From: Escherichia coli
GTDB taxonomy: Bacteria; Pseudomonadota; Gammaproteobacteria; Enterobacterales; Enterobacteriaceae
NCBI RefSeq assembly: GCF_046105845.1
Contig: NZ_CP151004.1
DNA length: 64,000 bases
Direction: 5' to 3' (one strand)
Shown here: piece by piece, positions 2,086-8,898 of the stretch
Layout: each line of letters begins with the position of its first letter
How positions within the stretch are numbered: position 1 is the stretch's first letter
Position numbers and translations under genes: made by a program
The notes under the pieces: model-generated
The model's database searches: none
What the model was told of the DNA's origin: nothing
What the model saw: only the letters and a program-made list of their open reading frames with translations

Positions 2086-2169
2086 GCCGGATGCGGCGTG
2101 AACGCCTTATCCGACCTACAGGAATGTGCTGAATCACCCCGTAGGCCTGATAAGCGTAGCGCATCAGGC
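2086..2169. repeat. REP/BIME element (two inverted REP units)
   Basis: gccggatgcggcgtgaacgccttatccgacctac and gtaggcctgataagcgtagcgcatcaggc, canonical REP sequences in opposite orientation. Confidence 0.7.
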
Positions 2170-2201
2170 AATGTGGCGTTTACCCATGCGTTAATGGATC
2201 A

Positions 2202-5200
2202 TTACCACTGAATACCGGCACCGAGCGCGGCGGAGTATTCACCCTGGCTATTGGTACTACCTTGTAATTTGTAGACCCAACGACCATTGGCGCTCACCAT
2301 CGACACACCTAAAGCAACAGCCGATTCACCGTTGTAAGTACCGCCACCAATAGAGGCCATGCTGGCACCTGGAGTGTAAGCCTGCGGCAGACCGGTCATT
2401 GCCATTGCAGAAGCGATACCACCGCTCAACTTGCTTTCGGTTTTGGACAGTTTGTTATCCATCTCAACCATCCGCTGATCGGTATATTGCTTCGTTTCCT
2501 GCACGCTTTGCTTCAGCTGCGCATAGTTCACTGCGTCGTTGTTGTTCACGCCAGCGGAGACGTTGCTGATGCGAGTCGTACCGCCATTACCACCACCGAG
2601 AGTGATGTTGCTGTAGTCTACAGAGCCATCAGCTTTGGTGTCGTAACGAACGCCGCCTGCCTCAGAAGACTTCAGCTGCGAAACGTTAACCGCATCGGTG
2701 GCATTAACACCTGCAGCAACGTTGGTGATACGACGCTGGTTGGTAGAAGAACCCACAGAGATGGTATTTTCTTCGTTGGCCACGGAGCCTGTACCCAGCG
2801 CGACGCTGTTGTCAGCGGCAGCAATGGAACCAGAACCAATCGCAACACTATCTTTACCCTGCGCGTTGGCATCTACGCCATCGGTGTTGGTCTTGAAGTA
2901 CTTGGTGCTACCGGTGGTTACAATGTCGCCAATACCGTTTTCGATATTAGTAACGCGAGTATCCAGATTAGTGACCTGATTGTTCAGGTTAGTAATGCTC
3001 TGGGTATTTTGCGCTACGCGCTCATCAGTGACTTTCAACTGACCTACGTTAACCGCATCGGTATCCGCTGAACCAGCCGCGACGTTGGTGATCTGACGTT
3101 GACCGTCTTCACTACCGACAGAGAATTCACCGACAGAATTCTGCGGTGCGTCCATGTTGTAGGCGGTGTAATCAGTTTGCGCACCACGGGTGGTCTGGGA
3201 ACCACTACCCATCGCAATACTGTTTGCATGATTTGCACTCGCGTTGCTACCGATAGCAATACCGTTGATTGCATCAGTTAACACCAGAGTGTTCAGGCCA
3301 ATACCGATCCCTGCATCACCATTAACAATGGTTTTCGCACCCATTGCCAGCGAGTCTTCACCGACAGCCAGTGAATCTTCTTCCGTTGAATTAGCATGGA
3401 AGTATTTGGACGGTGTCGTTGCTACGGCACCAATCGCATTCTGCAACTGGCGAACCGTAACGGCGTCATGGGCTTCGGAACCATCGGCGACGTTGATGAT
3501 TTGACGATATTTACCGTCATCACCAATCGACAATGCACCGAGCAGTTCGCCATCAGTGGTGTTATAACCAATGACTACGCCATCTTCGGTTACGCTGGTA
3601 TCACGGGAGCCCTGAAGGATGACACGGTTAGATACAGAACTGCTGCCCAGAGCAATTCCAGATTCAATAGTACTGCTGCTGTTCTGTCCAATTGCCACAC
3701 TGCTATCGCCTGATGCGACGGAGTTATAACCTACAGCTGTAGCGCCCACACCCGTAGCACTGGCATCCGCAAAGACTAAACCGCTGTCGTTAGTACGCAC
3801 ATAGTTGATACCTTCACCGTTCTCTGTGATATAGCTTTCGCTGGTATCACCGGCAATATTCTGGATCAACATATTTGTGGCATTTAACTGGGAGCCGTTA
3901 ACCGCGTCGGTGCTGGTTTCGTTAATCTGACCATTGGCTACGTTGGTAATGACACTGGCTTTGCCATCATGGCTAGCGTTAAACGCACCGTTTTCACCTG
4001 CGGTAGCGTCCCAAAGCAAGGCGTTATCCAGGGTTGAGTCAATTGCATTCATCGCATCGCCGACGTTGGTATAGTCGGTATCAGCAATTGTGTAAGTCGG
4101 TGCGCTGATGCTGCCGTCAGAATTCACCGCTGCACCACCACCAAGAGCCTCAGCGACGGAACTGCTAACGCCGTGGAGTTGAGCCCCATTAACCGCATCG
4201 GTGCTGGTGTCAGAAATTGTTCCTGCCGCGACGTTAGTTATTTTGCTGGCACTGCCATCGTGGCTGGCACTGAAGGCACCATTTTCACCTGCGGTAGCAT
4301 CCCACAGCATCGCATCGTCAAGAGTGGTATCAAGCGCGTTTAGGGCATCGCCGACATTATCGTAATCAGTGTTAGCAATGGTGTACGTTGGTGCACTGAT
4401 GCTGCCATCCGTATTCACGCCAGCACCACCACCCAGAACATCGACAACAGAGTTGCTTACATCGTAAAGTTGTGAGCCATTCACAGCATCAGAGCTAGAG
4501 TCAGAGACTGCACCGTCTGCGACGTTAGTGATTACGCTGGCGGTAGAACCGTGTTTGGCACTAAATGCGCCAGTCGTGCTATCCCAAAGGAGGGCATCGC
4601 CGAGTGAGTCGCTAAGTGAGGTGTTAATGGCGTCAAGTGCAGCACCAACATTGGTGTAATCATTACCATCAATGTTATAGGTAGGGCCGCTAAATACGCC
4701 AGAATCGCTCACAGTGGCACCACCACCAAGATAGGTGGCGATCGAACTGCTCAACCCATGAAGCTGACTGCCATTAATGGCATCAGTACTGGTGGATGAT
4801 ACAGTCCCTGCCAGGACATTGGTGATTTTGCTGGCATCTTTGTTTGCACCATGCGCTGCACTGAATGCAGTGCCATCCCAAAGCAGCGCATCCTGTTCCA
4901 GGGCGTCAATGGATGTATTCAGAGTATTAATGCTGGCGGTGTTAGCAGCAATATTGGTGGTATTGGTCGCCACATTCTCGTTAGTCGCATTCAGCTGCGC
5001 ACCGTTAACTGCGTCCGTACTATTTTCAGATAAAGTACCTGCTTTAACGTTGGTAATAGTGCTGGCTGTTTCTGTACCGTGCGCGGCGCTATACGCTGTT
5101 CCGTTCCAGAGCATTGCATCCTGCTCAAGGGTATCGATCGACGTATTGAGAGTATTAATATTGGCGGTGTTGGTCGCAATGTTAGCCGTATTGCTGGCGA

Positions 5201-7628: not shown

Positions 7629-7671
7629 TAATGATGCTCGCTATTCCTTGTTATAAGCGTACTAACTGCAT

Positions 7672-8355
7672 TTATTTTTTGCTTCTTTTCTGCCGATTTT
7701 CAGCAGAGGGAAGATTGTCAAACTGAATATTTTCCATATTGATGGCTAACTTCAGATATCCCAGGTTATTTGGCGATACGCCCTTCAGAGTCAAATTAAT
7801 GTCTTGCCATTGACCTGGTAATAATTTCAATGTGGATTTCATTGAGGTGTTGAAAAGTAATTGTTGCCACCGGGCAAACTCTTTGGCATCGACAGGTTTT
7901 TCACCCCCCCATGTCGCATTAAAACCAATGTTTGAGATAGGTGTACTTAATAAGTTGACCAGTGAGATATGAATAACACTACCATTCTCTGTGGCGTCAA
8001 TGGATAACACTCGACCCGCTAAAGCAACCGAACCATTGTTCAGGATGAAATACTTCGTTTTTGCCGGGTTAAACTCGGTAAAAATAAAGGTATTTTGTTG
8101 GTCTTTAACGGATTTAATTACGTGAGTCAAAGTCTTTGTACTGTTTATTATGCCAGTTTGTTGTTTTTGAATAGTTTCCAGTTGACTCTTTAGCTGTGCT
8201 TGTTGTTTTTCGAGTAGCACAATTTTATTGTTATGTTCTTCTTGTTGTTTCAATAAACTACTTTCTGGCTTGCCTTCTTCAATGTAGTCACATCCCGTTA
8301 ATGCGCAGAGAACTGAAACAGTGACAGCACTGAAAAAAATCTTCTTCAAGTTCAT
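7672..8355 (-). CDS. SadB-like lipoprotein with coiled-coil segment, upstream of and co-oriented with the adhesin
   Basis: Signal peptide with lipobox LTGC (MNLKKIFFSAVTVSVLCALTGC); Gln/Leu-rich heptad segment LLKQQEEHNNKIVLLEKQQAQLKSQLETIQKQQ; 43-bp gap to adhesin start. Confidence 0.7.
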   Translation of the reverse strand: MNLKKIFFSAVTVSVLCALTGCDYIEEGKPESSLLKQQEEHNNKIVLLEKQQAQLKSQLETIQKQQTGIINSTKTLTHVIKSVKDQQNTFIFTEFNPAKTKYFILNNGSVALAGRVLSIDATENGSVIHISLVNLLSTPISNIGFNATWGGEKPVDAKEFARWQQLLFNTSMKSTLKLLPGQWQDINLTLKGVSPNNLGYLKLAINMENIQFDNLPSAENRQKRSKK

Positions 8356-8898
8356 GTAAAAATCCTTATTGCCTCCGACCAGCGATCTATGCCGGTAGAG
8401 TTGTCCATTGTATTATTAGTGATCTATGTTGCTTTACATTAATGACAGTGATGTGTGTCGATTAAATATTGTTTTAAACATTCATCATAAAAATGTATCA
8501 TTCGTTTCAAAAGATGTCTGCGTTTGTATGAATATGTTATTTTTCGTGGATTCTAATGATGATTATTAATAAATGTCAAATATGAAAGAAACCATATCTG
8601 GAAAAAATCTTACTGATAATTGATTGTATGAATATGATGATTAAAATTTCACAATTAAATCCGAAAAAAAGAGACGTAAATGCTTGTTAATTAACAAATG
8701 ATATCTTCTATATATTTTTATTATTTATAGGTGGCTATTTCGGTAAAAATGCATTTTCAGAATATCAACCAGCGGTAAATCGAAGTAAAGGGAGTGAATT
8801 GTTTGGTAATTAGGCGAGTAGACAGGAGAGTCCCCGCATTGACCAGCTAAGGCAAGCCAGATGCGGGTTGATACGATCGAACCAGTCGTCTGAGGGGC
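8356..8898. promoter_or_regulatory. AT-rich upstream region of the lipoprotein-adhesin operon
   Basis: Visibly AT-rich 0.5-kb non-coding region with A/T tracts; contains the 13-bp direct repeat ttgtatgaatatg at 8524-8536 and 8624-8636. Confidence 0.4.

Follow-up and report, generated by a model that had tools for sequence, protein, structure and literature searches.

An intact mosaic allele of the sadB-trimeric autotransporter adhesin locus (EhaG/UpaG/SadA) in Escherichia coli

The trimeric autotransporter adhesins (TAAs) EhaG, UpaG and SadA are positional orthologues that a review (PMC7247748) describes as binding extracellular-matrix proteins and as mediating autoaggregation and biofilm formation. 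In Escherichia, Salmonella and Shigella, the sadA gene is flanked by the mtl and lld operons and forms an operon with the upstream gene of an inner-membrane lipoprotein, SadB (PMC3953254). SadB enhances the surface display and integrity of SadA, as demonstrated for Salmonella SadB only (PMC3953254), and E. coli K-12 is explicitly stated to have a deletion encompassing sadBA (Grin et al. 2014, PMC3953254). Here I describe the corresponding segment, between yibL and lldP, in a 64,000-nt stretch of E. coli DNA (contig NZ_CP151004.1 of assembly GCF_046105845.1; the whole of this stretch is called the window hereafter). With high confidence, this segment is identified as the sadB-TAA operon of the Escherichia chromosome, the adhesin of which is known as EhaG in enterohaemorrhagic E. 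coli (EHEC), UpaG in uropathogenic E. coli (UPEC) and SadA in Salmonella, and it is present as an intact, rare mosaic allele.

The sadB-adhesin operon and its products

Read along the minus strand, the locus consists of yibL, a 543-nt intergenic region, an open reading frame (ORF) of 227 amino acids (aa), a 43-nt gap, an ORF of 1808 aa, a 418-nt intergenic region and lldP. Its features are as follows, in window coordinates.

128-1783, minus strand: lldP (NCBIfam NF007740, 1199 bits)
2028-2057, minus strand: terminator-like hairpin, 13-bp stem and T-run
2086-2169, no strand: bacterial interspersed mosaic element (BIME) of two inverted repetitive extragenic palindromes (REPs), 3' of the adhesin gene
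2145-8897, no strand: segment absent from K-12, 6753 nt (blastn and junction alignment)
2202-7628, minus strand: trimeric autotransporter adhesin gene, 1808 aa (intact ORF, Pfam and PDB matches)
4900-6240, minus strand: repetitive stalk segment (Tandem Repeats Finder, motif positions)
7629-7671, minus strand: spacer between sadB and the adhesin gene, exactly 43 nt (from the sequence)
7672-8355, minus strand: sadB homologue, 227 aa (PDB 4c47, E 2.4e-67)
8356-8898, minus strand: AT-rich upstream region with a candidate promoter (composition, promoter scan)
8899-9261, minus strand: yibL (NCBIfam NF008244, E 8e-57)

This layout agrees with a first-pass annotation of the window, which had placed a SadB-like lipoprotein gene 43 bp ahead of an autotransporter gene between lldP and yibL: both ORFs were found with the predicted gap, and both flanking genes were identified by NCBIfam equivalogs. 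The 43-nt gap on the same strand implies that sadB and the adhesin gene form one operon, and the corresponding gap between sadB and sadA in Salmonella is 44 nt (PMC3953254). An Rfam scan of window positions 1-12000 at the gathering threshold gave no match.

The 5427-nt adhesin ORF is uninterrupted and every domain in it is intact. Pfam placed ESPR (PF13018), an extended N-terminal Sec signal peptide, at residues 1-48 (E 1.2e-15), and matched the full YadA_anchor model (PF03895) to aa 1748-1808, the final 61 residues (E 3.7e-19). The first 700 residues gave some twelve YadA_head repeats and four YadA_stalk motifs, and the last 1200 gave eleven YadA_stalk motifs with more head repeats, these two queries overlapping such that two YadA_stalk motifs are counted in both. 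The N-terminal YadA-like head spans about aa 93-337, additional head-like repeat regions lie at about aa 1290-1630, and the passenger contains 13 DAVNxxQL neck motifs as well as heptad arrays. Among PDB entries, the SadA fragments 2yo0 (E 3e-137) and 2yo3 (E 3e-89) matched, with aa 1391-1734 being ~90% identical to crystallised SadA fragments, and the anchor structures of Hia and YadA matched also. The extended signal peptide, repetitive stalk and YadA-type anchor that had been read from the sequence were thus all seen by Pfam (ESPR, YadA_stalk, YadA_anchor), including the anchor, for which a domain search had been proposed as the check. With its anchor, ESPR signal peptide and passenger of head, necks and coiled coils, the protein belongs to the type Vc autotransporters, and by analogy with orthologues that have solved trimeric structures it would be a surface-exposed homotrimer. 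The exact 1808-aa sequence is deposited as RefSeq WP_409023686.1 ('YadA-like family protein', Escherichia coli), which forms a one-member cluster at 90% identity.

The repetitive part of the stalk, coded by window positions 4900-6240, is built of tandem DALL-neck-coiled-coil modules of 118, 132, 83 and 76 aa, which differ by whole heptads (8, 10, 3 and 2 'NTxxIxx' heptads, respectively). In the DNA of the stalk, Tandem Repeats Finder detected a 396-nt unit present twice with 95% matches, and a 21/42-nt periodicity.

The 227-aa protein carries a lipobox, LTG/C, followed by Asp at position +2 (the sequence reads MNLKKIFFSAVTVSVLCALTG/CD), and its residues 30-227 match residues 10-207 of the Salmonella SadB crystal structure 4c47_A (E 2.4e-67). 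It is predicted to be an inner-membrane lipoprotein in which an N-terminal coiled coil precedes a C-terminal beta-sandwich (DUF3251); the Asp+2 criterion for retention in the inner membrane has likewise been applied to SadB (PMC3953254). RefSeq labels the protein 'SadB/YajI family lipoprotein' or DUF3251, and its sequence is identical to one found on at least 1000 contigs.

Both ends of the segment have the character that the first-pass annotation had given them, namely a REP/BIME element at the lldP side and an AT-rich region at the yibL side. The BIME is formed by a REP at 2086-2119 and a second, inverted one at 2141-2169, and a further REP pair lies at 40598-40695 in the window; none would be expected by chance. 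The terminator-like hairpin on the minus strand is a strong one and comes after the adhesin gene and the BIME and ahead of the lldP promoter region; K-12 has kept it, directly downstream of yibL after the deletion. At the other end, the 543-nt leader has a GC content of 33%, compared with 38% for sadB, 50.2% for the adhesin gene and 50.8% for the whole window, and a promoter scan found a candidate sigma-70 promoter in it (TTGACA-18-TAGAAT at 8579-8550, an 11/12 match). This leader is presumed to be a regulatory region bound by H-NS. PMC5012682 cites repression of upaG by H-NS, and silencing of the locus in the window is presumed on the basis of this repression and of the AT-rich leader.

Relation to EhaG, UpaG and SadA, and the mosaic allele

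RefSeq annotates upaG in E. coli CFT073 and ehaG in E. coli O157:H7 86-24 at the same site between yibL and lldP, each behind a DUF3251/SadB gene, and the site is also filled in four other E. coli strains. Identities between adhesins were taken from global alignments, which replaced local blastp results that had been misled by the internal repeats. The proposed likeness to the UpaG/EhaG/SadA arrangement was borne out: at this same site, the adhesin shows 83% identity with EhaG, 75% with UpaG and ~90% with the SadA fragments, and its anchor region (aa 1701-1808) is 100% identical in every allele compared.

EhaG of EHEC O157:H7 shares the site, the layout of ESPR, head, stalk and anchor, and an identical anchor, with 85% identity in the head, and its upstream lipoprotein allele is 99% identical to the one in the window. 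However, EhaG is 1588 aa long, so that the window protein exceeds it by 220 aa, and identity falls to 70-73% in the central stalk (aa 501-1300), where the window protein has extra heptad-repeat modules. UpaG of UPEC CFT073 (1778 aa) is a positional orthologue of the same architecture, 96-100% identical over the C-terminal 300 aa, but its head and stalk are 63-71% identical and its linked SadB allele 66.5%. The UPEC-like carriers 118UI and EC21Z-144 have flanking lldP and mtl DNA that is about 99% identical to that of the window, whereas their upstream AT-rich leader has no detectable similarity to the leader here. Salmonella enterica has its sadBA operon (structures 2yo0-2yo3 and 4c47) between mtl and lld with a 43-44-nt gap, a C-terminal stalk about 90% identical to that of the window protein in the crystallised fragments, and a SadB with full-length homology and the same Asp+2 inner-membrane signal, though at 52-54% identity. 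SadA has a mass of 147 kDa (PMC7247748) compared with about 180 kDa for the window adhesin, and the sequence comparison with SadA covers the crystallised fragments of its C-terminal stalk.

The closest full-length relative found was WP_089633887.1, a 1674-aa 'YadA-like family protein' from E. coli TUM9757, which is 97% identical over aligned residues and 100% identical over most of aa 501-1500. It differs in lacking one 118-aa stalk module and 15 head residues, and its head is 90% identical. The 118-aa gap in the TUM9757 allele falls within aa 501-900 and corresponds to one extra module in the window protein. The unusual length of 1808 aa is explained by these extra stalk heptads, namely the 118-aa module and the 396-nt duplication.

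A sliding comparison over 300-nt lengths divided the locus into three parts. The first takes in lldP, the mtlR side and the anchor end of the adhesin gene as far as about position 3000, and has 98-100% identity with the B2-like strains 118UI and EC21Z-144 but only 93-97% with K-12. In the second, the central passenger (3000-6300), identity with TUM9757 is 98-99%. The third, made up of the 5' end of the adhesin gene together with sadB and the AT-rich leader, matches the EhaG type at 95-97% identity and could not be detected in UpaG-type strains. By this comparison, the window allele is an intact, rare, three-part recombinant mosaic.

Several observations were made alongside on the surrounding DNA and on other carriers. 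None of 5426 complete E. coli genomes was more than 95.5% identical over the whole 8-kb locus, while another 5-kb stretch of the window reached 98.6%. At window positions 1-2100 and 9300-11000, the lldP and mtlR sides are 93-97% identical to K-12 and about 99% to B2-like strains, and the neighbourhood is one in which allelic divergence and recombination are locally concentrated. A source in a non-coli Escherichia, prompted by a first megablast that gave ~95% identity to every E. coli genome, was considered and rejected, because the 5-kb stretch is 98.6% identical to E. coli and because the exact SadB, YibL and LldP sequences are common in E. coli; the ~95% figure is due to local mosaicism. In E. 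coli 118UI, the adhesin gene (8001-13233 in the locus sequence of that strain) is annotated as two overlapping coding sequences, an 'ESPR domain-containing protein' and a 'YadA family autotransporter adhesin', and is apparently disrupted by a frameshift, although its 3' 699 nt are still 99.9% identical to the window.

Compared with the SadB of the window, the O157 allele shows 99% identity, that of CFT073 66.5% and Salmonella SadB 52-54%. SadB lineages within E. coli are deeply diverged, with 56-69% identity between the window allele and those of CFT073, SCPM-O-B-8794 and E69, and this spread nearly equals the distance between SadB of E. coli and Salmonella. The divergence follows that of the N-terminal passenger and not the invariant anchor. 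SadB may therefore be an allele-specific chaperone fitted to the passenger head or stalk, an idea that I regard as unlikely; physical linkage, with sadB adjoining the 5' end of the adhesin gene, is a plainer account of why the two diverge together. If the idea were true, an allele-specific SadB would inform on the mechanism of SadB, and the mosaic allele with its expanded heptads would be a natural chimera for mapping the interaction between SadB and passenger. As to the SadB types more broadly, the type shared by the window and O157 is 67-69% identical to those of CFT073, E1V33 and SCPM, which are mutually 80-88% identical, and 56% to the E69 type, and SadB of Citrobacter braakii is 92% identical to Salmonella SadB. 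The sadB homologue of E. coli O157:H7 86-24 has a stop at codon 3 if read from the usual ATG (about 7130-7145 in the locus sequence of that strain); its RefSeq product is 222 aa long and starts inside the signal peptide, and the helper lipoprotein may be defective in that strain.

The divergence of the central passenger also bears on whether the fibre acts mainly as an adhesin. A main role of another kind, for instance in serum resistance or, as with the Eib proteins, in binding immunoglobulin, would fit the functional diversity of TAAs and the 65-73% identity of the central passenger to the characterised EhaG and UpaG. EhaG, UpaG and SadA, however, all confer aggregation, biofilm formation and adhesion to the extracellular matrix or to cells (PMC7247748), and conservation with these three proteins is good in both the head and the C-terminal stalk, which makes a main role other than adhesion very improbable.

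Conserved position, loss from K-12 and the rest of the window

A synteny scan with a SadB alignment against species-representative genomes returned 10 loci. Three species, Escherichia sp. E1V33, Pseudocitrobacter vendiensis and Citrobacter braakii, have the order mtlD-mtlR-yibL-sadB-TAA-lldP; in E. albertii the contig is cut and shows sadB-TAA-lldP. Salmonella was missed by the scan, presumably because of its dependence on an exact peptide pattern, and synteny with Salmonella rests on PMC3953254 and the PDB matches. This gene order is shared by E. albertii, a cryptic Escherichia and members of Pseudocitrobacter and Citrobacter, so that the locus is an ancestral feature of Escherichia and its relatives and not an inserted island.

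In MG1655, the annotated interval between yibL and lldP measures 371 nt and holds no adhesin gene, which bears out the expectation that the adhesin operon would be missing from this site in K-12. A K-12 derivative (the NEB Turbo locus) aligns through window positions 1-2144 and lacks 2145-8897. The left breakpoint (2144/2145) falls where the second REP of the BIME begins, and the right breakpoint lies immediately past the yibL stop codon, with about 11 unrelated nt replacing the segment. The 3' 699 nt of the adhesin gene were present in 4154 of the 5426 complete E. coli genomes (77%), always as a single chromosomal copy, and 1272 genomes had no adhesin gene. A 121-nt probe spanning the K-12 junction matched at nearly full length in 1261 genomes, a number close to that of the gene-negative genomes, the two sets being compared by count and not genome by genome. 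This closeness makes it most likely that the absences descend from one deletion event ending in the BIME.

The reverse history, in which the 6.75-kb segment is an accessory island acquired between yibL and lldP and K-12 retains the ancestral empty site, was considered because the presence of the locus varies (it is missing from 1272 of 5426 genomes), because sadB (38%) and the leader (33%) are low in GC, and because a repeat element lies at one junction. However, no integrase, transposase, tRNA or flanking direct repeat was found at the locus, and the GC content of the adhesin gene (50.2%, against 50.8%) is typical of the genome. The same order recurs in Escherichia sp. E1V33, in E. albertii and in the genera Pseudocitrobacter and Citrobacter, and PMC3953254 reports it for Salmonella; this speaks against insertion, as do the near-equal numbers of K-12-junction and gene-negative genomes and the fact that the K-12 junction cuts a BIME that is complete in locus-positive strains, as a single deletion predicts. 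Synteny across genera and the single K-12 junction largely refute the island, which was rejected as very improbable. Two terms of the first-pass annotation need to be narrowed in consequence: the locus is 'accessory' in that its presence is variable (about 77% of complete E. coli genomes), but not in the sense of an acquired island, given its position in other genera, and it is 'horizontally variable' through allelic mosaicism by homologous recombination but not through insertion, since K-12 lost it by deletion.

The Escherichia locus was also encountered on contigs labelled as Bacillota, Oscillospiraceae and Collinsella metagenome-assembled genomes and as Bacillus hominis. On these contigs, YibL, MtlR or LldP were 100% or nearly 100% identical to E. 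coli, and these occurrences are most likely contamination or mis-binning.

Elsewhere in the window, a three-gene sugar-use module at 26429-30845 lies between aldB and an sgbE/araD-like gene. It codes for a 662-aa hydrolase, a symporter of the GPH family (466 aa) and a regulator of the AraC family (271 aa), the hydrolase being related to aceric acid hydrolase (E 3e-135, under the cut-off), and in CFT073 araD adjoins aldB where the window has this module. At 22526-23821, the gene of a 431-aa Fic-domain protein with weak similarity to a Fic adenylyltransferase model (E 6e-11) lies between yiaY and aldB, and is likewise annotated in CFT073. At 14411-16226, yibH adjoins yibF as in CFT073; in K-12, an rhsA element presumably lies between the two. 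The 5.2-kb stretch from yibI to selB was matched in one piece by 1530 of 5425 genomes, so that most strains have an insertion in it.

Proposed function and significance

A number of points weigh against assigning the segment to the sadB-TAA operon and reading its function accordingly. The Pfam match of the lipoprotein to DUF3251 is weak (E 0.009) and its NCBIfam match far under the cut-off; the SadB assignment rests on the strong PDB match. RefSeq names the adhesin only 'YadA-like family protein', neither EhaG nor UpaG, and both of these share only 65-73% identity with its central passenger, so that ligand specificity is not transferable from them. Promoter-like sites in 8356-8898 are no commoner than in shuffled sequence, and the mechanism and function suggested below for the window allele are carried over from characterised orthologues.

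It may also be asked whether the intact gene contributes anything in its strain, or is a functionally decaying or permanently silent relic. The 118UI copy annotated as two overlapping coding sequences, the early stop at codon 3 in sadB of O157:H7 86-24 when read from the usual ATG, and the repression by H-NS (PMC5012682) would suit a relic. Against this, the ORF of the window is open over its 5427 nt with all domains intact, the anchor is 100% conserved between alleles, and SadB is identical in sequence to that on at least 1000 contigs. Retention of the locus in 77% of genomes and across genera moreover implies purifying selection, and a relic is accordingly judged improbable.

For the sadB-TAA operon as read here, the following course of events is proposed from the orthologues. 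Sec would export the 1808-aa precursor by way of its extended ESPR signal peptide, which would slow export, and the trimeric inner-membrane lipoprotein SadB would help three chains to stay competent and to assemble in the periplasm. The beta-barrel assembly machinery (BAM) would insert a 12-stranded barrel made of the three C-terminal anchors, and the passenger would be threaded out and fold as a trimeric fibre, its N-terminal head a beta-roll and its long stalk made up of necks and coiled coils. Expression of this fibre may lead to autoaggregation and biofilm formation, and to attachment to extracellular-matrix proteins or epithelial cells. H-NS probably represses transcription from the AT-rich leader under laboratory conditions, and these phenotypes would follow once repression is relieved. 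The locus itself diversifies through homologous recombination and as heptad repeats of the stalk are gained or lost, and the K-12 lineage lost it by what appears to have been one deletion with an end in the BIME.

Published work already covers the locus and where it lies, the helper lipoprotein, the absence from K-12 and the allelic diversity, and the exact protein is in RefSeq under a generic name, so that the finding has little significance beyond correct annotation. What is added here for E. coli is the prevalence of the locus (some 77% among 5426 complete genomes), evidence that it was deleted once (1261 junction genomes vs 1272 gene-negative genomes), and a map of a three-part recombinant allele with extra stalk heptads.

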